Shown: positions 6,919-44,354 of the stretch, one piece after another
Position numbering within the stretch: the first letter of the stretch is position 1
Layout of the letters: every line of letters starts with the position of its first letter
Sequence record: PQ400055.1
Length of the DNA stretch: 64,000 bases
Source of the DNA: a phage
Strand: one strand, 5' to 3'
The notes under the pieces: generated by a model
Seen by the model: the letters and a program-made list of their open reading frames with translations, nothing else
What the model was told of the DNA's origin: nothing
Database searches by the model: none
Translations under genes and position numbers: made by a program

Positions 6919-8922
6919 ATGACTCTATTATCACCGGGTTTCGAAACGAAAGAAACTACTCTCTCCACTACCATTGTGCAATCTGCGACTGGTCGCGCTG
7001 CACTGGTAGGTAAATTCCAATGGGGTCCAGCTTTCCAGATTATTCAAGTAACTAATGAAGTTGAATTAGTTAATAAATTTGGTCAGCCGGATAATAACAC
7101 CGCAGACTATTTCATGAGCGGGGCTAACTTCCTCCAGTATGGCAATGACCTGCGTGTTGTTCGTGTATTGAATAAAGAAAAAGCGAAAAACGCAACTGCC
7201 CTAGCTGGTAACATCGAGTTTGAAATCACAAACGAAGGTTCAAACTATGAAGTAGGCGATACCATCAAGATTAAACATAACCGTCAAGATATTGAAACGG
7301 CTGGTAAAGTAACTAAAGTTGATGGTGATGGTAAAGTTAAGGGCGTATTTATCCCAACTGGTAAAATTATCGCTCACGCTAAAGCAATCGGTGTATATCC
7401 AGAACTTGATGGCGGTTGGACGGCAGAGTTCACTTCTTCGTCAGGTAACGGTAGTGCGGCGCTGTCAGTAACTAAAATTGTTACTGATTCCGGTCTTCTG
7501 TTAACGGATCTGGAAACTTCCCGCGCCAATATCACAAATCAGACTTTCTTGACTAAACTCCAGAAGTATGATATGCCAGCGGTAAGCGCGATCTATGCTG
7601 GTGAGATTGGCAACTCGCTGGAAGTTGAAATTCTGGCACGTAGCGCGTTCAGTGGCGCGGTAGCACCTGAATTAACTATATATCCGTTCGGCGGAACTCG
7701 TGCCGCAGCACGCAACCTGATTCCATATGCACCGCAGAATGATAATCAATATGCATTTATTGTTCGTCGCGATGGTGTTGTGGTAGAATCCTATGTACTG
7801 TCTACTCTGAAAGGGGATAAAGACGTATACGGCAATTCTATCTACATGGACGACTTCTTTGCTCGTGGTTCTAGCCAGTACATCTATGCAACCGCTCAAG
7901 GGTGGGTAGATGGTTTCAGTGGTATTATCTCTCTTGCTGGTGGTGTTTCTGCTAACGAAGCAACGACTGCTGGTGTTGGTGCTGATCCGTTCATCGGTGC
8001 GATGATGCAAGGTTGGGATCTGTTTGCTGAACGAGAATCTATTCACGTAAACCTGTTGATCGCTGGTGCATGTGCTGGCGAAGGCGATGCGTTCTCTACC
8101 GTACAGAAACATGCTGTTTCCATCGGCGATGAGCGTCAGGATTGCTTAGTAATGGTTTCTCCGCCGCGTAGCACTGTTGTTAATATTCCGGTGACTACCG
8201 CAATTGATAACCTGATTGCATGGCGCGAAGGTTCAGGAAACTATAATGAAAACAACATGAACATTAATACCACTTACGCGGTTATTGATGGTAACTACAA
8301 ATATCAGTATGACAAATACAACGACGTAAACCGTTGGGTTCCGTTGGCTGCTGATATTGCTGGTTTGTGCGCTCGCACTGATGCTGTATCCCAGCCGTGG
8401 ATGAGTCCGGCAGGTTATAACCGTGGACAGATCATGAACGTGGTTAAACTGGCAATTGAGCCTCGCAAGGCGCACCGCGATCGTCTGTATCAGGCCGCAA
8501 TTAACCCGGTAATCGGTGCTGGTGGTGAAGGGTTTATCCTGATGGGTGATAAAACCGCTACGACTGTTCCTAGCCCGTTTGACCGCATTAACGTTCGTCG
8601 TCTGTTTAACATGCTGAAAAAGAATATCGGCGATTCAAGCAAATACAAACTGTTTGAAAACAATGATAACTTTACTCGCGCTTCCTTCCGTATGGAGGTT
8701 TCGCAATATCTCAGCACGATTCGCTCTCTGGGTGGCATTTATGACTTCCGAGTACAATGCGACACCACGAATAACACGCCGGATGTAATTGATCGTAACG
8801 AATTTGTTGCTAGTATGTTCATCAAACCAGCAAAATCGATCAACTATATCATGCTCAATTTCACTGCTGTTGCAACTGGTTCTGATTTTGACGAAATTAT
8901 CGGTCCAGCTAACCAGGCATAA
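6919..8922 (+). CDS. 18: tail sheath protein gp18
   Basis: 667 aa (T4 gp18 about 659 aa); position between terL and tail tube. Confidence 0.9.
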   Translation: MTLLSPGFETKETTLSTTIVQSATGRAALVGKFQWGPAFQIIQVTNEVELVNKFGQPDNNTADYFMSGANFLQYGNDLRVVRVLNKEKAKNATALAGNIEFEITNEGSNYEVGDTIKIKHNRQDIETAGKVTKVDGDGKVKGVFIPTGKIIAHAKAIGVYPELDGGWTAEFTSSSGNGSAALSVTKIVTDSGLLLTDLETSRANITNQTFLTKLQKYDMPAVSAIYAGEIGNSLEVEILARSAFSGAVAPELTIYPFGGTRAAARNLIPYAPQNDNQYAFIVRRDGVVVESYVLSTLKGDKDVYGNSIYMDDFFARGSSQYIYATAQGWVDGFSGIISLAGGVSANEATTAGVGADPFIGAMMQGWDLFAERESIHVNLLIAGACAGEGDAFSTVQKHAVSIGDERQDCLVMVSPPRSTVVNIPVTTAIDNLIAWREGSGNYNENNMNINTTYAVIDGNYKYQYDKYNDVNRWVPLAADIAGLCARTDAVSQPWMSPAGYNRGQIMNVVKLAIEPRKAHRDRLYQAAINPVIGAGGEGFILMGDKTATTVPSPFDRINVRRLFNMLKKNIGDSSKYKLFENNDNFTRASFRMEVSQYLSTIRSLGGIYDFRVQCDTTNNTPDVIDRNEFVASMFIKPAKSINYIMLNFTAVATGSDFDEIIGPANQA

Positions 8923-34697: not shown

Positions 34698-34768
34698 TTG
34701 ATACTCCTTAGTAGTTCGTTTCGGTATGGGTGTATTATGATATACACCATCTGTTATGTCAACAACTT
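34698..34768 (-). promoter_or_regulatory. PeSL-like early promoter cassette (TTGACA, 17 bp, CATAAT, then RBS)
   Basis: Minus-strand reading gives TTGACA -35 and CATAAT -10, then AGGAG RBS before ATG. Confidence 0.6.
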
Positions 34769-34948
34769 TTAGAACATTTTTGAAATTAATTCTGCTTTGA
34801 TTTCGCAGAGAACATCTAAAGATTTCTCGTCACCCGCTTTTGCTGCTTCTGCTTGCATTTTTGAAATGGCTTCAATGTCAGTGCAATTATAAGCCGCTTG
34901 AACTTTAGCGATTGCGATGATTGCCGATTCGATGGTTAAGTGTTTCAT
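34769..34948 (-). CDS. small hypothetical early protein (59 aa)
   Basis: Start placed at MKHLTIESAI.. after RBS AGGAGA; six-frame ORF to 35014 runs into promoter cassette. Confidence 0.5.
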   Translation of the reverse strand: MKHLTIESAIIAIAKVQAAYNCTDIEAISKMQAEAAKAGDEKSLDVLCEIKAELISKMF

Positions 34949-35020
34949 GTTTGATTCTCCTAGTTCGTTTCGGTATGTGTGTATTATAGGGGATCGATGA
35001 TCCCCTGTCAACAACTTTTT
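34949..35020 (-). promoter_or_regulatory. PeSL-like early promoter cassette
   Basis: TTGACAGGGGATCATCGATCCCCTATAAT on minus strand (palindromic spacer), then AGGAGA RBS. Confidence 0.7.
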
Positions 35021-35023
35021 TAG

Positions 35024-35715: not shown

Positions 35716-36050
35716 AATATAGTTCTCCTGAATGGATCATCACGTAAATCAATATCTTTTAAGAACTCATCCCATGAATAGCGGATATTGTTCTTAATTC
35801 TCCAGATAAGCGCAGGGATTGAACGTTCTCCCATCTGGAAGTATGGATCATATGATCCGTATGCCCAATATGCTACTACAATTCCACAATCAGCGCAATA
35901 GTATTCTATTTCACTTGCTGGCGACCAAAGTCCATCAATATGATCGGTGATCTTGCTTTCGATGTTATGGCTATGACAATCAGGGCAACGGATGCAATGA
36001 CCTTGTTTATCGTAATTTGACGTTAGCGAATACTTAAACAATCTCATCAT
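35712..36050 (-). CDS. zinc-finger protein (C4)
   Basis: CIRCPDC..CADCG motifs; 112 aa; 4-nt overlap with both neighbours. Confidence 0.5.
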   Translation of the reverse strand: MMRLFKYSLTSNYDKQGHCIRCPDCHSHNIESKITDHIDGLWSPASEIEYYCADCGIVVAYWAYGSYDPYFQMGERSIPALIWRIKNNIRYSWDEFLKDIDLRDDPFRRTIL

Positions 36051-36763
36051 AGATCCTTATTTGCTTCAAATACTGCCTTTGCGAATCCTCGCGGGGTCAG
36101 TGACCTGATAGTCTTTGTTTTCGTTCCTTTCCCGCCTAGCTTAGAATGCTGTTTACTGTACCCTTTATTAATCTGCAACGGTTTCTTTTCTGGCATTATA
36201 AAGCCTTGTCCGGTCCATAAGCAAGTCTTTTTCGGGTACATATCACGGGCGGCGATATACTCAGGAAAAGTAGGATGTTTATCATCTTCCGGCAAATAAC
36301 CGCCATATTCCCACGGGTGGAACATGTAATCAGGCTTACGCCACATGCTAGAGATAACGCTTACAGGATTCTCTATCATGTAGGGAACTCCTAGCCATTC
36401 ACCCAAATAAGCGGTTATTTTAGCTGCCCTTACATCATGAACTTGAATCAATGGTCCTTGTTCTCGTTTCTTTCGTTCAAAGTGTGCAGCGCCACTAACA
36501 GCTAAATTGGTGCACGGTGGGAATGCAAAGATAATATCCGGTTTCCCCCATTCAAGGTCCATTGCTCTTTCTAGCCAGTTCAAATCAATCCATGTGTTTA
36601 CATAGGTAATGTTTGGGTGTTCAAATCTGGTATTATACTTTTTGTATGTGCCGTGGTCGCCATCGTCAGCATTAAAGCAGATCACCTTATGACCTGCTTT
36701 AGCCCATTCTAGCCCCATTATCCCCGATCCGTCAAAGTTACAGAATATTAATTTTTGTTTCAT
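36047..36763 (-). CDS. compact C5-cytosine methyltransferase-like protein
   Basis: Motif I-like FDGSGIMG, motif IV DIIFAFPPC, motif VI MIENPVSV, C-terminal IRSLTPRGFA (RxLTPRE-like). Only 238 aa, no obvious target-recognition domain. Confidence 0.45.
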   Translation of the reverse strand: MKQKLIFCNFDGSGIMGLEWAKAGHKVICFNADDGDHGTYKKYNTRFEHPNITYVNTWIDLNWLERAMDLEWGKPDIIFAFPPCTNLAVSGAAHFERKKREQGPLIQVHDVRAAKITAYLGEWLGVPYMIENPVSVISSMWRKPDYMFHPWEYGGYLPEDDKHPTFPEYIAARDMYPKKTCLWTGQGFIMPEKKPLQINKGYSKQHSKLGGKGTKTKTIRSLTPRGFAKAVFEANKDL

Positions 36764-37253: not shown

Positions 37254-37330
37254 TGTTTGATTCTCCTAAGTGGTATCTCGTCTTGATGGTTGTATTGTAG
37301 GGGAGTTATCCTCCCCTGTCAATACTTTTT
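37254..37330 (-). promoter_or_regulatory. PeSL-like early promoter cassette
   Basis: TTGACAGGGGAGGATAACTCCCCTACAAT on minus strand, then AGGAGA. Confidence 0.65.
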
Positions 37331-37336
37331 ATAAAA

Positions 37337-37504
37337 TTATTTGTTAATTTCTGGTGCGTTGCTAGGATAGTAACCTTCTTTAACACCCAGATATTTTGCA
37401 ACCATTCCTACAATCTTCTGTGCTACTACAATGTCAAATTTCAGATAATCTTCGCCGTGGGTTTCAATGATATATGCTTCACATGCTGCTTTAGTCTCGA
37501 ACAT
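37337..37504 (-). CDS. small protein (55 aa), copy 1 of a duplicated gene
   Basis: MFETKAACEAYIIETHGEDYLKFDIVVAQKIVGMVAKYLGVKEGYYPSNAPEINK; near-identical paralog at 40622..40789. Confidence 0.55.
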   Translation of the reverse strand: MFETKAACEAYIIETHGEDYLKFDIVVAQKIVGMVAKYLGVKEGYYPSNAPEINK

Positions 37505-37580
37505 TTTGATTCTCCTATTTCGTTTCGGTATGTGTGTATTATAGGGGATCTCCCGATCCCCGTCAACAACTTTTTTAAAA
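37505..37580 (-). promoter_or_regulatory. PeSL-like early promoter cassette
   Basis: TTGACGGGGATCGGGAGATCCCCTATAAT on minus strand, then AGGAGA. Confidence 0.65.
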
Positions 37581-37862
37581 TTATTCGTGATTAGTTTCGA
37601 TGTTGTACATTTTGCACCAGTTCAGCCAATCGCCCAGATCTTGATAGTTGATGCTTTTATCTGCTGCCATCGTTTTTGTCTTGATACCCATATGTGCGTT
37701 ATGAGTAAGCATTTTTACAGTGAACTCAATTTTATCGCCTTTAGCTTTAACATCAACCAGTTTGGTCCACTGGCTACCAGCGCCGCGAATGTTCATACCA
37801 ACGATGTTTCCGATGTATGCTTCTTTGTTTTTCAGGATTTCGGTTGCTTTGATGAATTTCAT
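37581..37862 (-). CDS. hypothetical early protein
   Basis: 93 aa ORF downstream of a PeSL-like cassette. Confidence 0.5.
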   Translation of the reverse strand: MKFIKATEILKNKEAYIGNIVGMNIRGAGSQWTKLVDVKAKGDKIEFTVKMLTHNAHMGIKTKTMAADKSINYQDLGDWLNWCKMYNIETNHE

Positions 37863-37932
37863 TTTTGATTCTCCAGTTCGTTTCGGTATGTGTGTATTAT
37901 GCTATGTTCTTACTTTGGTGTCAACAACTTTT
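37863..37932 (-). promoter_or_regulatory. PeSL-like early promoter cassette
   Basis: TTGACA..17 bp..CATAAT on minus strand, then GGAGA. Confidence 0.6.
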
Positions 37933-38202
37933 TTAGATATTTTCAGAAATAAATTTTAAAACTTGACGTAAATGTTTCTCATCTTTGATAGTCGCCGGAA
38001 GTTCTTCTTTTACTTCCTGTGCAAGATAGATATTTCCGTTCCAAGTGAAAGATCCGTCTTCGTTTACGCGATAGCTGAACATCCACTCGCAATCATTTTC
38101 GATTTCATATACACACAGAAGGGTGTAATCGTTAAAGCTATTGATTTCAAGGTCGAAGCCGTGACGTTTTGCAAAGTTGGTAGTGGTTTTAGTCAGTGCC
38201 AT
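37933..38202 (-). CDS. hypothetical early protein
   Basis: 89 aa ORF. Confidence 0.5.
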   Translation of the reverse strand: MALTKTTTNFAKRHGFDLEINSFNDYTLLCVYEIENDCEWMFSYRVNEDGSFTWNGNIYLAQEVKEELPATIKDEKHLRQVLKFISENI

Positions 38203-38280
38203 TGTTTGATTCTCCTAAGTGGTATCTCGTTTCGATGGGTGTATTATGCTATAGGCGTGATCTGGTGTCAACAACTTTTT
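38203..38280 (-). promoter_or_regulatory. PeSL-like early promoter cassette
   Basis: TTGACA..CATAAT on minus strand, then AGGAGA. Confidence 0.6.
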
Positions 38281-38295
38281 TAATTTTTTGGAAAT

Positions 38296-38322
38296 AAAAA
38301 AGCCGACACTAAGGTCGGCTAA
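38296..38322 (-). terminator. rho-independent terminator (minus)
   Basis: AGCCGACCTTAGTGTCGGCT hairpin with T-run on minus strand. Confidence 0.6.
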
Positions 38323-38327
38323 TAAAA

Positions 38328-38636
38328 TCATTTAGACAAGTAATCATTCTGTGCAATACGGTCGGCGTATGCTGGTGTTATGTCAATCGCCAGCACTTTA
38401 ACGCGTGCTTTCTTGCGACCTGGGTTTTCTCGTAACCAGTGCTCATGACCGTGAACATTTTTATACTTTGATGCTTCTTCAAATGTACGGATCGGGCCTG
38501 GATAATCTGCGTAAAGGATCTCTAGGTCTTCGGTGATGTAAAAATATACATCATAATTACTGTTCTCTAGTTTAAGCAGAGACTTTCGGAACATTGGGAG
38601 ATTTTCGCGGGTAAATTCAAAGATATTATCTTTCAT
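38328..38636 (-). CDS. HxHW-motif small protein family, member A
   Basis: ..YDVYFYITEDLEILYADY..HGHEHWL..KVLAIDI; 102 aa. Confidence 0.55.
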   Translation of the reverse strand: MKDNIFEFTRENLPMFRKSLLKLENSNYDVYFYITEDLEILYADYPGPIRTFEEASKYKNVHGHEHWLRENPGRKKARVKVLAIDITPAYADRIAQNDYLSK

Positions 38637-38690
38637 AGTATTATCCTCAATAGTTTGATGAAAAGGGGTGGGGGCTTAACGCCCCGTATA

Positions 38691-38978
38691 TTAAAACAGT
38701 CCTTCCTGTACACCGTAGTAGAGTTCATCGCTGATAATTTCATTAATGCGACGGTGTGCATATTCCTGATTTGCGAAGTTATCAGCAAGTTCTACTTTAG
38801 TTTCTCCGTCATGAGTCCATTTAGTGATAACTTTACCATCTGCAAATTTGAAGTTGAACTCTTTAGCTACTGCATCGCGTACCAGACGTGCGAACTTGTT
38901 ATTACGGATTGCATTATCGGTTTCGTGTGCAGCGTGAGCGAATTTGTTAACTTTCAGAGTGATAGTAATGTATGCCAT
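38691..38978 (-). CDS. hypothetical protein, paralog of 41985..42296
   Basis: Shared ..R.AVAKEFN.K.. core with the 42 kb paralog. Confidence 0.5.
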   Translation of the reverse strand: MAYITITLKVNKFAHAAHETDNAIRNNKFARLVRDAVAKEFNFKFADGKVITKWTHDGETKVELADNFANQEYAHRRINEIISDELYYGVQEGLF

Positions 38979-39058
38979 AATTTGATTCTCCTAGTTAGAA
39001 AGTGTATCTCGTTTCGATGGGTGTATTATGCTATACACCCGATCTTATGTCAACACTT
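38979..39058 (-). promoter_or_regulatory. PeSL-like early promoter cassette
   Basis: TTGACA..CATAAT on minus strand, then AGGAGA. Confidence 0.6.
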
Positions 39059-39059
39059 T

Positions 39060-39353
39060 TTATAAAATAATTTTTTGATATTTTTCTATGATGTTTGTGT
39101 AATCCACATCAACCGCTATCACCGTTGCTTCGAATCCACCGTTTAGCCAATGGCTATGATCATGATCGTGAAAGAAACCAAGACCAGTACGAAGACCTTC
39201 TTTATATTCGGCGCGTACATTTAGATCATCATCGATAAACAGATAAAACCATGAATTTTTACTAGGATTGATGATACAACCTTTCAGATTAGGGAGAATA
39301 TCACGACTAAGAATAAACTTATCACCTACTTTGAACATAATATTAGTCCTCAT
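39060..39353 (-). CDS. HxHW-motif small protein family, member B
   Basis: ..WFYLFIDDDLNV..HDHSHWLNGG..TVIAVDV; likely start at MFKVGDK (39338). Confidence 0.55.
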   Translation of the reverse strand: MRTNIMFKVGDKFILSRDILPNLKGCIINPSKNSWFYLFIDDDLNVRAEYKEGLRTGLGFFHDHDHSHWLNGGFEATVIAVDVDYTNIIEKYQKIIL

Positions 39354-39663
39354 TTATAAGGTCAAACCAATTGTTTTTCGCATAATGCTTAATGCGTGCT
39401 TGATCTGCTTCCGCTGGTGATAGATTCCATGCAACCACTACAACTTCTGACGCATCGTCATCCGTTTCTGATACCCAATGATTGTGATTCATACAGTTAT
39501 TTGCGATCGAGTGAGCAAATGATTTCATCACTGGAGACGTATAATCATAGTAACGGATTTTCAGATTTTCATCAACGTACAAATAGATCGTATAAGGTTT
39601 ATATTCAGTAACCAGTAACAGACAGTTACGCAATTCTGGGAAAATCTTTTTAGTTAATTTCAT
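39343..39663 (-). CDS. HxHW-motif small protein family, member C
   Basis: ..YTIYLYVDENLKIRYYDY..HNHWVSETD..VVVVAW; start set at MKLTKK with GAGGA RBS; six-frame ORF to 39744 is N-extended. Confidence 0.5.
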   Translation of the reverse strand: MKLTKKIFPELRNCLLLVTEYKPYTIYLYVDENLKIRYYDYTSPVMKSFAHSIANNCMNHNHWVSETDDDASEVVVVAWNLSPAEADQARIKHYAKNNWFDLINED

Positions 39664-39664
39664 T

Positions 39665-39904
39665 TTATAATCCTCGGTCGCGGCTATAGTACACGGTACG
39701 CCATACAATTTCATGTTTCGTGTCGCTCCAGCACACGATCTCATTTACTCTTAAATCTTTGTTATCAACAAAAGATGAACATTGTGACGCTTCTTTCATC
39801 ATTTTATCTGCTGTTTTCTCATCAAATACAGCACAGATTTCTTTATACACTCGATAATCTTTGAATTGACTCTGAATACCCATAATTAACACCATTCCAA
39901 CCAA
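39665..39904 (-). CDS. small protein, tandem paralog pair member 1
   Basis: SQFKDYRVYKEICAVFDEKTADKMMKEASQCSSF parallels the neighbour's SKFKEYKAYQQILRVYTPEFAEKMMEDASKCPSF. Confidence 0.5.
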   Translation of the reverse strand: MVGMVLIMGIQSQFKDYRVYKEICAVFDEKTADKMMKEASQCSSFVDNKDLRVNEIVCWSDTKHEIVWRTVYYSRDRGL

Positions 39905-40106
39905 TTGTTTTTGAGAAAACGTTTATCCACTGTTGAGTGTAACATGTTTCTTTCCATGATACAATACGAGTAGAATAATGGTTTTTGTTTCCAGAAAAGG
40001 ACGGGCATTTTGATGCATCTTCCATCATCTTTTCGGCGAACTCTGGTGTGTATACTCGCAGGATCTGTTGATATGCTTTGTATTCTTTAAATTTGCTCAT
40101 AATCAT
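39843..40106 (-). CDS. small protein, tandem paralog pair member 2
   Basis: See neighbour; 87 aa. Confidence 0.5.
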   Translation of the reverse strand: MIMSKFKEYKAYQQILRVYTPEFAEKMMEDASKCPSFSGNKNHYSTRIVSWKETCYTQQWINVFSKTIGWNGVNYGYSESIQRLSSV

Positions 40107-40365
40107 TCACTACCTTATCAGCTTCTTTTGTTGTTTTTACATCAACTGCGATAACTCGTAAAGGTTCGTCATGGTTCCACCAGTGGTCATGAATATCAGC
40201 TTGTGATTTATCACCAAAGGAATCACGAATATCATTTTTACATTTATAGCTAATGTGACCTTCATAGTCAACATAAAGGTAATTATCGAAAATCGGCGTT
40301 TTTAAGATCATACCGAAAAATCTTTCTTTGTGTGTCTTATCCAGCGTTGCAGTAATTCGCATCAT
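40087..40365 (-). CDS. HxHW-motif small protein family, member D
   Basis: ..NYLYVDYEGHISY..IHDHWWNHDE..RVIAVDV. Confidence 0.55.
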   Translation of the reverse strand: MMRITATLDKTHKERFFGMILKTPIFDNYLYVDYEGHISYKCKNDIRDSFGDKSQADIHDHWWNHDEPLRVIAVDVKTTKEADKVVNDYEQI

Positions 40366-40377
40366 AATATATTCCTC

Positions 40378-40557
40378 TTAGAAAGGGATGGTCATTTCTT
40401 GAGCTTGTACGTTCTCGTTAGGATTAAACTTCATCCAGCCGATATTGTCTACCAGCATATGCACATTTTTATCATATCCTACGTGGGTAGTCAATACTGT
40501 ATGTGCTTTACCTTCAATGATGAGTTCCATGTACTTCTGAACTTCGATAGCTTTCAT
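40378..40557 (-). CDS. small hypothetical protein (59 aa)
   Basis: MKAIEVQKYMELIIEGKAHTVLTTHVGYDKNVHMLVDNIGWMKFNPNENVQAQEMTIPF; directly downstream of a PeSL-like cassette. Below six-frame track cutoff. Confidence 0.45.
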   Translation of the reverse strand: MKAIEVQKYMELIIEGKAHTVLTTHVGYDKNVHMLVDNIGWMKFNPNENVQAQEMTIPF

Positions 40558-40620
40558 TTTGATTCTCCGTTTGTTGTCTTGATGGGAGTATCTTACTACT
40601 CCCTTTAATCATTGTCAACT
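40558..40620 (-). promoter_or_regulatory. PeSL-like early promoter cassette
   Basis: TTGACA, spacer with GGGAGTAGTAAGATACTCCC stem, TAAGAT -10, GGAGA RBS on minus strand. Confidence 0.55.
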
Positions 40621-40621
40621 A

Positions 40622-40789
40622 TTATTTGTTAATTTCCGGTGCGTTGCTCGGATAGTAACCTTCTTTAACACCCAGATATTTTGCAACCATTCCGGTGATC
40701 TTCTGTGCTACTACGATATCGAATTTCAGGTAGTCTTCACCGTGGTTTGCTACAATGTATGCTTCGCATTCTGCTTTAGTCTGGAACAT
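40622..40789 (-). CDS. small protein (55 aa), copy 2 of a duplicated gene
   Basis: MFQTKAECEAYIVANHGEDYLKFDIVVAQKITGMVAKYLGVKEGYYPSNAPEINK; paralog of 37337..37504. Confidence 0.55.
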   Translation of the reverse strand: MFQTKAECEAYIVANHGEDYLKFDIVVAQKITGMVAKYLGVKEGYYPSNAPEINK

Positions 40790-40858
40790 TTTTGATTCTC
40801 CTATCTCGTTGGTATGTGTGCATTATAGGGGATCACCGATCCCCTGTCAACAACTTTA
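40790..40858 (-). promoter_or_regulatory. PeSL-like early promoter cassette
   Basis: TTGACAGGGGATCGGTGATCCCCTATAAT on minus strand, then AGGAGA. Confidence 0.65.
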
Positions 40859-41149
40859 TAATGCTTTATATGCGTATTTCATAAATTTGTCTGCCACTTC
40901 ATTGGCATGTTCAGATTCTACGCCTGATTCGAGAACAATAGCTAGGTCGGTTTCGTCATTCCCGCCGTACCAATGATTTGATGTTCGATTTTTTTCAATT
41001 GGAAATTGGTCACTTTTATCTGTGCGACAAAATACATCTAAATGCTCGTCGATGTAAAAGATCCAATCTTCATAAAGAATAACGGTATTAGCCAGATTTT
41101 TATTGCCTTCAACGAAAGGTTCGGCTACAAACAAATTAGTATGTTCCAT
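40856..41149 (-). CDS. HxHW-motif small protein family, member E (divergent)
   Basis: Start set at MEHTNLF with GAGGA RBS; ..ILYEDWIFYIDEHLDV..SNHWYGGND..LAIVLES. Confidence 0.45.
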   Translation of the reverse strand: MEHTNLFVAEPFVEGNKNLANTVILYEDWIFYIDEHLDVFCRTDKSDQFPIEKNRTSNHWYGGNDETDLAIVLESGVESEHANEVADKFMKYAYKAL

Positions 41150-41165
41150 AGTATTTTCCTCAAAA

Positions 41166-41357
41166 TTATACAGCTTCGTAAACTTCCCAATGTCCAACAC
41201 CAGCACGCTTAACGAAAAGGTTTTCTTTTATGTTATTCATAAACGTCTGGATGGATTTAATGCGGTTTGAAGGTTTCCATTCTTCGTTGGTATTGCGTCG
41301 ATACATCATAACATTACCAGTTCGCTTATATTCAGCAACCATTTTAAGACCACACAT
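41166..41357 (-). CDS. small hypothetical protein
   Basis: 63 aa ORF with GAGGA RBS, downstream of a promoter-like cassette. Confidence 0.45.
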   Translation of the reverse strand: MCGLKMVAEYKRTGNVMMYRRNTNEEWKPSNRIKSIQTFMNNIKENLFVKRAGVGHWEVYEAV

Positions 41358-41430
41358 AATATTATCCTCAATTTGTGGGAGAGTATTACCCTCCCGATTA
41401 TTGTTATACTACATTACGCAAAATGGCGTG
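41358..41430 (-). promoter_or_regulatory. PeSL-like promoter cassette (divergent copy)
   Basis: TTGACA, 17 bp, TAGTAT, then GGGAGGGTAATACTCTCCC stem-loop and GAGGA RBS on minus strand; -35 lies in the 3' end of the upstream gene. Confidence 0.5.
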
Positions 41431-41716
41431 TCAATGCTTCTTTTGCTGTTCCGCTAAGATTCTCGATCTCTCCTGGCATAACATCAACCGCAAGAACTTC
41501 TACAACATCCTCTGATCCTAACCAGTGAGTATGACCTTTGTAGAACTTGATATCCCATTTATCGCTATCGCTAGCCCACCACACATCACCGTCGATAAAG
41601 TTGATGTAAAGCACACTACGCCACATTGAATTAATTACTTTCAATACTGCGCCTTTCATCTCTTCCACGGTGTGGTCTTCCATTTTGAAGACCTCACCTA
41701 CCTGAACTTTTGCCAT
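41414..41716 (-). CDS. HxHW-motif small protein family, member F
   Basis: ..VLYINFIDGDVWW..GHTHWLGSED..EVLAVDV. Confidence 0.55.
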   Translation of the reverse strand: MAKVQVGEVFKMEDHTVEEMKGAVLKVINSMWRSVLYINFIDGDVWWASDSDKWDIKFYKGHTHWLGSEDVVEVLAVDVMPGEIENLSGTAKEALTRHFA

Positions 41717-41733
41717 TTAGTCACCTCTCTTTA

Positions 41734-41913
41734 TTACATAACAATCACGCCAGCCGTTGAAAGTTGATGTTTCAACTGAGCATTTTCTGCTACCGTCAAA
41801 TCAATGATTTCTTGTGACGCTGCAATCATATAGCCATTGGTGATATTGTTTTGCATCAGTTCAATGGTTTCTTCGTTGTAGCGGATTTTAGCGATGATTT
41901 CGTTGAAGTTCAT
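41734..41913 (-). CDS. small hypothetical early protein (59 aa)
   Basis: Start placed at MNFNEIIAKI after AGGAGA; six-frame ORF to 41979 runs into promoter cassette. Confidence 0.5.
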   Translation of the reverse strand: MNFNEIIAKIRYNEETIELMQNNITNGYMIAASQEIIDLTVAENAQLKHQLSTAGVIVM

Positions 41914-41984
41914 AATTGATTCTCCTAGTTCGTTTCGGTATGTGTGTAGTATAGGGGATCGGTGATCCCCTGTCAACAACTTTT
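41914..41984 (-). promoter_or_regulatory. PeSL-like early promoter cassette
   Basis: TTGACAGGGGATCACCGATCCCCTATACT on minus strand, then AGGAGA. Confidence 0.65.
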
Positions 41985-42296
41985 TTAAAGTTTTTCCATG
42001 ATAACGGTCATAATTACATCTTCTGCGCGAGCGGTCAGATTATCAGCGTCAGCATGTGGGCGGCTGGTTGTTACAGAGATAACACCGTTGCGCACTGGTT
42101 TGATGTTGATATCAAGATGATCCGCGAAACGTTCGCCAGTTACAGAATGAATTTTGGTGTTAAATTCTTTTGCCAGTGCCTTGCGAACTTCACGAATCAG
42201 GGTAGCGTTTTTCAGTTGGTTCTCCGCGCTCATGGTCTTCTGGGTGTTCATGGTTCCGTCGAAGTCAATCATTGGCAGCGTTACGATGTATTTCAT
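41985..42296 (-). CDS. hypothetical protein, paralog of 38691..38978
   Basis: Start placed at MKYIVTLP; six-frame ORF to 42356 is N-extended into the cassette. Confidence 0.5.
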   Translation of the reverse strand: MKYIVTLPMIDFDGTMNTQKTMSAENQLKNATLIREVRKALAKEFNTKIHSVTGERFADHLDINIKPVRNGVISVTTSRPHADADNLTARAEDVIMTVIMEKL

Positions 42297-42380
42297 TTTT
42301 GATTCTCCGTTTAAGAAAGTGTGTTTCGTTTTGATGTGTGTAGTATAGGGGATCACCGATCCCCTGTCAACAACTTTTTG
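42297..42380 (-). promoter_or_regulatory. PeSL-like early promoter cassette
   Basis: TTGACAGGGGATCGGTGATCCCCTATACT on minus strand, then GGAGA. Confidence 0.65.
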
Positions 42381-42382
42381 AA

Positions 42383-42859
42383 TTATTTTTCTTGATGCTC
42401 GCGATCGTACTTTTCGAAATAAAATTCTACTGGCTGGTCGTGGATTGACAGCAAGCCAAAGCGTTTAGCCGCTCGCAACCCCATATTGCGCTGAATGTAC
42501 TTCTGGAAGTTCTCGCGTATACACTTACGCCAGTATTCTAAGCCCATACAGCTTTTATAAAGATTGCATTGCACACACGCCGGATTCATGTTATCAAGTA
42601 TATCATGTTCCGGTTTATGCATTCCTACAACCTTATACTTCCACGATCCATCATCATTACGGGCAATTCGTCCATTTTCATCATAGACTACCTTTGAGCG
42701 TCGCAATACTGGTTTGATGTGGTCCGCGTGCCAGCGATCCCCTAGTTCCTCGCCACAATAGGCACAACGTCCACCGTATTTCATTTTCAGGATCTGGCGT
42801 TGCTCTTTCTTTGACAATTTTTTAGGTTTAGGGGCTTTCGCCCCTTCATTATCACACAT
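42383..42859 (-). CDS. HNH endonuclease (free-standing, homing-endonuclease-like)
   Basis: CAYCG..WHADHIKP..N..CVQCN: HNH zinc-finger nuclease motif. 158 aa. Confidence 0.7.
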   Translation of the reverse strand: MCDNEGAKAPKPKKLSKKEQRQILKMKYGGRCAYCGEELGDRWHADHIKPVLRRSKVVYDENGRIARNDDGSWKYKVVGMHKPEHDILDNMNPACVQCNLYKSCMGLEYWRKCIRENFQKYIQRNMGLRAAKRFGLLSIHDQPVEFYFEKYDREHQEK

Positions 42860-44354
42860 CGAATACCTCTTTTACTGTATTTGCAGTGGTCTTGTCGTAG
42901 CGAATACGTTTGATGATTGGGAGAAATAAAGAGAACTCCGGTTCATCTTCTTTACGTGATTTGCTGCGGATATACCCGTTGCATGTCATCTCAATAACTT
43001 TTCCAATCAGGTTATGACGGTCAGCCCATAACATTTCTCGGTCGAGTTCATTTCGACGATCGAACGGAATTACACGTTCAGTACCATCATCACCTTTTTC
43101 GGTTGTAGTGTCGGTTAATCCCGATCCGGTGTTAGTCATCATTCGTCCGCACGAACTACGGACAGTAAAACCGCCTACCTTATTGGGGTCTTTACTATGC
43201 GGATATACATCAACAATTTCCGCGTCGAAGTCAATCACTTCTTTAAATTTAACCTGATCTTTACTACGGCGATCTTCAAATACACCATGTAAATTTTTAA
43301 GGATAATACCTTCTAAGCCCATGTTGACATAACGATGATATACTTCGCGAGCTTCATCGATATTGTTAACTACAGTGTTTTCGATGATCTGAACACGAGG
43401 ATCGTTAAGTTCTTCAACAATCTGTTTTAGTTCTTCGAATCGATCTTTATATTGCTTCGTTGCTTTCTCGTTTCCGTAATACACATCACGGTCGATAACA
43501 TCCCAGACAGTGTAAACAATACATTGGGCTTCTTCTTTTGGAATAGTTCCTTTAAGTGATTTGTTGAGGATACCATTTCCGGTCTGACGATCTGCAACAA
43601 CGGATTCTTTCACTGCTTCCGCTACTGGCGTTAATGGCATTTCCTCTTCTTCAAATATCCATGACAGAGTACCATCATAAACGCTTTCAACGAAGTTCTG
43701 CGCTGGTGTTTGCGAAAGGGTAGGCATATATACCAATTCACCATCTAGAACAATTCCACGGCCTCGTAGACGCTCTAAAACCGCAAACAAATCATCAAGT
43801 CCTTGATAGGTATTACCTGAGCGGGTATAGATTGCTAATGTTTCCCCGTCAATATCAGCCATACCACGAGCGCCATCGCTTTTAAGTTGTGCATACGCCG
43901 GATACTTGATATTAGCAATAGTCTTATCAGAACATGACGATGCAAGGTGACACGGTTGCTGGGGGATCAGTTTCTTCCATACCTTGTTTGCAGTGGTAGC
44001 GGAACAACCACATTCCAGATCACGATTCAGGACCATCATTGCAACTTTAGCATCATCTTCTGACAAGCAAGTCAGAGTATCGGTAACTAGCTGTAATGCT
44101 GCGTTACCAGTTACTTGACGCGTGGCAAGTTTATTTTTAAAGACCTGTAATGCACCGGATAAAGACAATACAGACGAATAGCGAGATGGTTCATCGTATT
44201 TCTTTACGCCAAACGTAACCTGTTTGCAATATGCCAGATAAAAGCATTCTTTCAGTGTTTCATTGCTTGCAGATTCTTTCAGGATCTTTTCTTTCAGCGA
44301 TGTTTTGTCGGTCGCTGCAAGCTGGTTAATGATATTAAGAATTGACATTTTCAC
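42852..44354 (-). CDS. 30: ATP-dependent DNA ligase gp30
   Basis: 500 aa; FPAYAQLKSDGAR (KxDG adenylation motif), DGELVY, EGIILKN, and C-terminal motifs match T4 DNA ligase from memory. Confidence 0.9.
   Translation of the reverse strand: MKMSILNIINQLAATDKTSLKEKILKESASNETLKECFYLAYCKQVTFGVKKYDEPSRYSSVLSLSGALQVFKNKLATRQVTGNAALQLVTDTLTCLSEDDAKVAMMVLNRDLECGCSATTANKVWKKLIPQQPCHLASSCSDKTIANIKYPAYAQLKSDGARGMADIDGETLAIYTRSGNTYQGLDDLFAVLERLRGRGIVLDGELVYMPTLSQTPAQNFVESVYDGTLSWIFEEEEMPLTPVAEAVKESVVADRQTGNGILNKSLKGTIPKEEAQCIVYTVWDVIDRDVYYGNEKATKQYKDRFEELKQIVEELNDPRVQIIENTVVNNIDEAREVYHRYVNMGLEGIILKNLHGVFEDRRSKDQVKFKEVIDFDAEIVDVYPHSKDPNKVGGFTVRSSCGRMMTNTGSGLTDTTTEKGDDGTERVIPFDRRNELDREMLWADRHNLIGKVIEMTCNGYIRSKSRKEDEPEFSLFLPIIKRIRYDKTTANTVKEVFDV

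Follow-up and report, generated by a model that had tools for sequence, protein, structure and literature searches.

Most of the unexplained genes of T4-type phages are located in hyperplastic regions, which are a rich source of anti-defense and host-takeover functions. The closest described systems include the ORFan cassettes of phages RB49 and phi1, which are flanked by PeSL elements composed of a sigma-70 promoter and a GC-rich stem-loop (Arbiol et al. 2010, PMC2839356; PMC4122927). One PeSL stem-loop was as efficient as rrnB T1 in terminating transcription (PMC2839356). The internal-protein (IP) loci of T-even phages also encode small accessory proteins in plastic loci with promoter/stem-loop flanks, and adaptive or anti-defense roles have been proposed for them (PMC2839356). 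Another point of comparison is the toxin-immunity protein Tis1; Tis1-like domains neutralize the toxSAS toxin FaRel too (PMC11782079). We examined a stretch of 64,000 nucleotides of the phage sequence record PQ400055.1 (here termed the window), in which six small open reading frames (ORFs), designated A to F in order of ascending coordinates, are located between positions 38328 and 41716. Their RB49 counterparts were handled as unrelated ORFans in the RB49/phi1 paper (PMC2839356), which does not appear to report RB49 ORFs 197, 199, 200, 203, 206, and 208 as one family. The present analysis demonstrated that the six genes are paralogs that diverged long ago and belong to a single orphan protein family, which had not previously been unified and is narrowly distributed.

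Bases 38000 to 42000 of the window exhibited 94 to 99% identity to ∼59 GenBank Krischvirus phages, including phage kaaroe (98.9%) and RB49 (96.5%), and the source is on this sequence evidence a Krischvirus, i.e., an RB49-like T4-type phage of Escherichia coli. A preliminary description of the window had proposed a six-member family, and all six ORFs were found, every one of them on the minus strand. The genes lie between alt, which encodes an ADP-ribosyltransferase, and the gene for the gp30 DNA ligase (42852 to 44354), and the corresponding stretch of RB49 is annotated as hypothetical proteins RB49p185 to RB49p211. The presence of many small ORFs in this interval, compared to alt.1 only in T4, indicated that it is one of the hyperplastic regions of RB49/phi1 (PMC2839356).

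Membership of the family was examined using leave-one-out hidden Markov models (HMMs) searched against the 427 ORFs of the window and 8,540 shuffled decoys. Each left-out member was the top nontraining match (E values of 1.7e-10 to 4.7e-3), with scores of 16 to 40 bits compared to a decoy maximum of 10.8 bits. Pairwise phmmer searches detected matches between A and C (1.5e-12) and between B and each of A, C, D, and F (4e-5 to 1e-3), while E gave the weakest result, of 0.008 to D. With an enlarged profile, the six paralogs scored 72 to 95 bits and the next ORF of the window scored less than 5 bits, a gap that indicated the presence of exactly six members in the window. The H.HW pattern occurred five times in the 427 ORFs, solely in family genes, against 0.28 occurrences expected from composition. 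In other phages, the E orthologs have complete THNHW and VLASDV sequences, indicating that E is a true member and that the first His has been lost in this lineage. The phmmer, leave-one-out, E ortholog, and enlarged-profile results were in agreement, and the proposal of a six-member paralog family was upheld. Chance similarity or noncoding ORFs would be compatible with the low pairwise identity among the paralogs (13 to 33%) and with nothing more; this explanation, to which we assign a negligible probability, was refuted by the leave-one-out recovery, by ratios of nonsynonymous to synonymous substitution (dN/dS) of 0.12 to 0.19 among orthologs, by strong ribosome-binding sites, and by confident and concordant structural models.

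The six proteins are ∼92 to 106 amino acids (aa) in length, soluble, and neutral to acidic (pI 4.5 to 6.8). Paralog A (38328 to 38636; 102 aa; leave-one-out E value of 2.4e-9) has an HEHWL motif followed by a VLAIDI strand, belongs to PHROG 9345, and is followed by a terminator-like hairpin at 38320 to 38301. Paralog B (HSHWL and VIAVDV; PHROG 17255; E value of 2e-6) is listed at 39060 to 39353 with 97 aa. Its true start is most likely the sixth codon, an ATG at 39338 that would give a protein of 92 aa, because a GAGGA Shine-Dalgarno sequence is present there and none is present at the listed start and because the RB49 annotation and PHROG 17255 agree with this position. With this start, B does not overlap C and the two genes are 4 nt apart. 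Paralog C (39343 to 39663; 106 aa; HNHWV and VVVAWNL), which is closest to A and is also in PHROG 9345, starts at 39663 with a GAGGA ribosome-binding site, in agreement with RB49p200. Paralog D (40087 to 40365; 92 aa; PHROG 15972; E value of 5e-6) carries HDHWW and VIAVDV. Paralog E (40856 to 41149; 97 aa; PHROG 15965; E value of 4.7e-3; 95 bits) is the most diverged of the six, with TSNHWY, in which the first His is gone in PQ400055.1, and IVLESGV. Paralog F (41414 to 41716; 100 aa; PHROG 16486; E value of 6e-4; 72 bits) has HTHWL, VLAVDV, and a GAGG ribosome-binding site. The paralogs are thus spread over five PHROGs, all of unknown function, and the links between these PHROGs consist of weak cross-matches of B and D to 9345 and nothing else.

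A MAFFT alignment of the six paralogs placed HEHWL, HSHWL, HNHWV, HDHWW, (S)NHWY, and HTHWL in one set of columns, and the HxHW variants are therefore equivalent by position. In this motif the Trp and the His next to it were invariant, and the first His of the motif is at least 90% conserved in the family. The second half of the signature that had been attributed to all six proteins, (V/I)(L/I)AVDV, was degenerate in C and E. Across the subfamilies, the invariant or near-invariant positions comprised the core strands (YLYID, L, and V) and H59, H61, W62, V71, A73, D75, V76, A82, and D83 (numbering of D), and the greatest variation in sequence and length was located in the loop of residues 44 to 58 and at the N terminus.

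Structural models of B and D were generated independently with AlphaFold2 and family alignments. The predicted local distance difference test (pLDDT) values were 84 and 90, and the predicted template modeling (pTM) scores were 0.79 and 0.83, for B and D, respectively. Both models had the same order of elements, with a short strand, a helix, three strands, a long loop, and then the HxHW part, in which a short helix beginning at HxHW is followed by the VLAxDV strand and by a C-terminal helix starting from a conserved (E)AD. Other paralogs, as modeled in BFVD, superposed on model B with template modeling (TM) scores of 0.62 to 0.68. The predicted fold is a compact alpha/beta domain common to all paralogs, and in these models it reads as a decorated small barrel-like sheet without a clear solved relative. 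One explanation that would suit a small barrel is that the proteins are SH3-like (KOW-like) regulators that bind nucleic acid or the RNA polymerase or ribosome and modulate early host transcription or translation; we consider this doubtful. A resemblance of the models to Tis1 was weak but replicated, and we regard it as a lead and not as a classification.

The conserved His residues could also be part of a binding site. The proteins would then be metal or small-ligand binders, acting as enzymes or as a sponge, in which the HxH pair and the acidic residues D33, D75, and D83 (numbering of D) form a metal or nucleotide site. This explanation appears unlikely, although less so than a barrel-type regulator. 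The first His is replaced in E of the window (TSNHW) and missing in protein P0093, and hence a two-His site is not universal. Among metal-binding families, the sequence searches detected no match beyond Cupin_2 in one member (E value of 0.2), which is not significant. A structural match to Tad2/AcrIIA7 (DUF2829) was rejected, as model D failed to reproduce it and as the order of secondary structure differs: in Tad2, a five-stranded antiparallel sheet comes after an N-terminal helix, unlike in the B and D models. None of the 27 members scanned matched Pfam DUF2829 at an E value of ≤1. Furthermore, a single enzymatic activity is hard to square with the conservation of six paralogs.

The distribution of the family was investigated in two large searches. 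The first, in which 5.8 billion proteins were searched with a word-indexed profile method, detected 90 sequences, all of which were orthologs of one of the six paralogs (at least 54% identity); the members on long contigs were derived from contigs of 163 to 176 kb. When 1.84 billion cluster representatives were searched exhaustively with HMMER, 21 proteins were detected at an E value of ≤1e-3, and further iteration added one. All 21 were from RB49-like phages or metagenomic relatives, and the named phages were all Krischvirus. The newly found metagenomic members were single-domain proteins of 84 to 111 aa, each resembling one subfamily (A/C-, B-, D-, E-, or F-like). This sorting of metagenomic relatives into the same subfamilies indicated that the duplications are old. 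A more distant T4-like phage, represented by a 20-kb contig, carried two E-like members, again between ligase and alt. Comparison of the family profile with 24 kb of T4 spanning the syntenic region (112000 to 136000) detected no member, the best score being 3.4 bits.

Searches of Pfam, PADLOC, and PDB sequences, with either single sequences or profiles, gave nothing significant, and only weak, below-threshold matches of single members were observed (PROCT, 0.0034; T4_Y03C, 0.1; Cupin_2, 0.2; 1yb3, 0.14). The family had not been recognized in the preliminary description, and these searches likewise yielded no confident match to a housekeeping family. The search of cluster representatives also returned two long repeat proteins, P0102 (965 aa) and P0104 (1034 aa), of which one is lipoprotein-like and the other has MAM-like repeats. 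"FYI...HW" or "GHxHTW" units recur in these proteins, and their summed E values were ∼1e-5 to 1e-6. Both were rejected as spurious members, as each repeat scored less than 10 bits and significance arose from the summing of seven; the resemblance is probably due to chance.

Conservation of the family was examined in eight cultured relatives (RB49, JK32, Brandy, G2494, Whisky, W115, SAP, and ELT4), in all of which the number of members was exactly six and the gene order was F-E-D-C-B-A. No accordion-like variation was detected when copy number was compared across these phages, and recent accordion amplification was rejected on the grounds of the fixed copy number. The preliminary description had suggested diversifying selection from the six diverged copies. 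Nei-Gojobori estimates among orthologs gave dN/dS values within the range stated above for all six genes, compared to 0.03 for the ligase, 0.07 for the HNH gene, 0.06 for the methyltransferase, and 0.01 to 0.26 for other small ORFs of the region. These values indicated purifying selection, more relaxed than that on the ligase, HNH, or methyltransferase gene, and at the whole-gene level the suggestion of diversifying selection was not borne out. Purifying selection thus maintains the six genes, the order of which is fixed. Synonymous divergence (dS) was raised in A (0.28) and E (0.54), alongside raised overall divergence, which indicated allele replacement by recombination and not fast amino acid change. 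Gene E is dimorphic in Krischvirus. The window-type allele (TSNHW/VLESGV) exhibited 96 to 100% identity to E of the window, while an alternative allele (THNHW/VLASDV), ∼70% identical, was present in JK32, Brandy, G2494, and FL04. The E ORF of this alternative allele is longer or fused upstream, with a length of 172 aa in FL04.

Phage FL04 (PP358550), which was isolated on MG1655, has only the F and E members of the family. Its sequence is colinear with positions 42942 to 40621 of the window and then resumes at 37575 to 34396, with a loss of ∼3.05 kb. The missing segment (37576 to 40620, minus strand) contains ten ORFs, i.e., D, C, B, and A and six other small ORFs, and the junction (8422 to 8662 of the FL04 locus) is inside a repeated unit composed of a PeSL and a 55-aa gene. 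The viability of FL04 indicated that growth on E. coli K-12 does not require at least these four paralogs (D, C, B, and A).

The preliminary description had placed these genes in an early region, and the promoters of the locus agreed with this placement. The region contains 9 to 10 copies of a 60- to 80-nt repeat with TTGACA-17-TATAAT and a GGGGATC...GATCCCC hairpin between the hexamers; a repeat family of nine 62-nt copies and one of six 79-nt copies were detected. These repeats are the PeSL cassettes that Arbiol et al. described (PMC2839356). Minus-strand sites of the TTGACA-17-TATAAT type, with 11 to 12 of 12 matches to the sigma-70 consensus, were detected at 41976, 40850, and 39053, and a PeSL precedes each transcription unit that contains a family gene. 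The PeSL at 41927 to 41988 (minus strand; TTGACA-17-TATACT with a GGGGATC...GATCCCC stem-loop) heads the unit o60-F-o63-E, in which F is the second gene under the promoter at 41976 to 41948. A PeSL at 40801 to 40862 (minus strand), with a 12/12 match to the consensus, heads the unit o55-o59-D-o87-o79-C-B, and a third, at 39004 to 39065 (minus strand), heads o95-A. The second of these is the ortholog of RB49 PeSL206/205, which is located directly downstream of gene E and proved to be a very strong promoter, a fusion with lacZ yielding ∼13,000 Miller units (PMC2839356). The consensus promoters and the activity of RB49 PeSL206/205 mean that the predicted early expression of the family genes is well grounded. 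Other PeSL-type cassettes, with a consensus sigma-70 promoter and a GGGGATC...GATCCCC or similar hairpin between the −35 and −10 hexamers, were present on the minus strand at 34713 to 34774, 34962 to 35023, 37273 to 37334, 37499 to 37577, 37875 to 37936, 38222 to 38283, and 42321 to 42382. In all, ten such cassettes are distributed through the alt-ligase region, and they correspond to the elements known from RB49/phi1. The family genes thus have the attributes of PeSL cassettes: an upstream sigma-70 promoter with a GC-rich stem-loop, a hyperplastic site between core genes, and, for D, C, B, and A, a nonessential nature.

Several other genes of the region, all on the minus strand, were noted. 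Three further pairs of paralogs of unknown function are present, namely, a pair in PHROG 7474 (38691 to 38978 and 41985 to 42302), a pair in PHROG 8009 (37337 to 37504 and 40622 to 40789) that corresponds to a 172-nt DNA repeat with 88% identity, and a tandem pair in PHROG 8471 (39665 to 39883 and 39843 to 40106). The alt-ligase region as a whole is assembled from old duplications. The DNA ligase gene is overlapped at its end by an HNH endonuclease gene (42383 to 42859), and a DNA methyltransferase gene (36047 to 36763) is located inside the same hyperplastic region; the dN/dS values given above place the HNH and methyltransferase genes under strong purifying selection.

A metagenomic relative raised the question of whether the paralogs act together. 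Protein P0091 is a 203-aa natural fusion of two B-like domains, and the single-domain family sequences all align to the first of these. Its contig (L003; Logan SRR8048117; 2123 bases) encodes, at 229 to 2019, an F-like protein, the B-B fusion, a D-like protein, and a C-like protein back to back, so that five domains are packed in four adjacent genes. This tight packing and the fusion hint at a possible interaction between family members. In the corresponding explanation, the paralogs would bind one another as homo- or hetero-oligomers and the complex would be the functional unit. The 4-nt spacing of C and B and the conserved gene order are also consistent with such a complex. However, FL04 is viable with F and E alone, the divergent relative has two members only, both E-like, and the genes of the window, which have unrelated ORFs between them, are divided among three promoter units. 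We therefore regard an oligomeric unit as improbable, somewhat more so than a metal or ligand site.

The explanation that we favor, and hold only tentatively, is that the paralogs are paralog-specific stoichiometric binders or inhibitors of proteins of the host or of mobile elements, such as defense proteins. Each paralog would be made immediately after infection and would act as a stoichiometric binder or inhibitor. All paralogs would be built on one rigid scaffold and make contact through a shared motif, the HxHW helix, and the hypervariable loop beside HxHW, together with the termini, would give each copy its own specificity. The targets would be different host or mobile-element proteins, for example, defense or toxin effectors. 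The putative array may be likened to arrays of diverged immunity proteins, and the weak structural resemblance to Tis1 would point the same way. This explanation was favored because of the combination of a scaffold and a variable loop, the maintenance of six lineages, the accessory early position, and the Tis1 lead. An anti-defense or host-takeover role is plausible from the context. A more specific and markedly less probable version is that the family represents a new anti-defense or counter-toxin fold, with six distantly Tis1-like inhibitors that each neutralize a different toxin or abortive-infection effector via the HxHW helix and loop and thereby set the host range of Krischvirus across natural E. 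coli strains.

A number of observations weigh against binding or inhibition of such targets. The family profile detected no sequence link to Tis1 among PDB sequences, even at an E value of ≤10. The ten neighboring ORFs scanned, located between the six genes and just downstream of them (37581 to 42302), had no significant Pfam match and were all in PHROGs of unknown function; no toxin or known partner was detected among them, nor was any gene for a toxSAS/(pp)pApp synthetase. The invariant His and Trp residues suit a catalytic or ligand/metal site at least as well as a protein interface, and the dN/dS values of 0.12 to 0.19 contain no arms-race signature at the whole-gene level. The tandem fusion and tight clustering in the metagenomic relative could mean that the paralogs act together.

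These results convert six "hypothetical proteins" in five PHROGs into one family with an invariant motif and a confidently predicted, apparently unmatched fold. The family provides a defined experimental target, with one scaffold, six putative specificities, point mutants of the two His residues and the Trp, and a natural four-gene deletion phage, FL04. If the proteins are inhibitors, they would be a new family in the counter-defense repertoire of phages; if not, they would be an ordinary case of an old paralog expansion in a plastic region. The occurrence of such a family is not in itself surprising for a hyperplastic region of a T4-type phage.

In comparison with known systems, the Tis1 lead (PDB 6OX6 chain B) consists of a weak resemblance of the models, with no sequence match. 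As with the T-even IP loci, the genes encode small accessory proteins in a plastic locus flanked by promoters and stem-loops. The IP proteins are packaged, are highly polymorphic between phages, and have a gp21 cleavage leader, whereas the present family has a conserved copy number and gene order and gives no sign of being packaged. A further similarity is to the PeSL-flanked cassettes of RB49/phi1, which occur in the same type of genome and in the same alt-ligase hyperplastic region (RB49 ORFs 197 to 208) with the same promoter and stem-loop elements as in the window. The loss in FL04 is an excision mediated by a repeat or a PeSL, a type of event described for these cassettes (PMC2839356). 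The paralogs of this family, however, are old, have a fixed order, and are not undergoing active shuffling.

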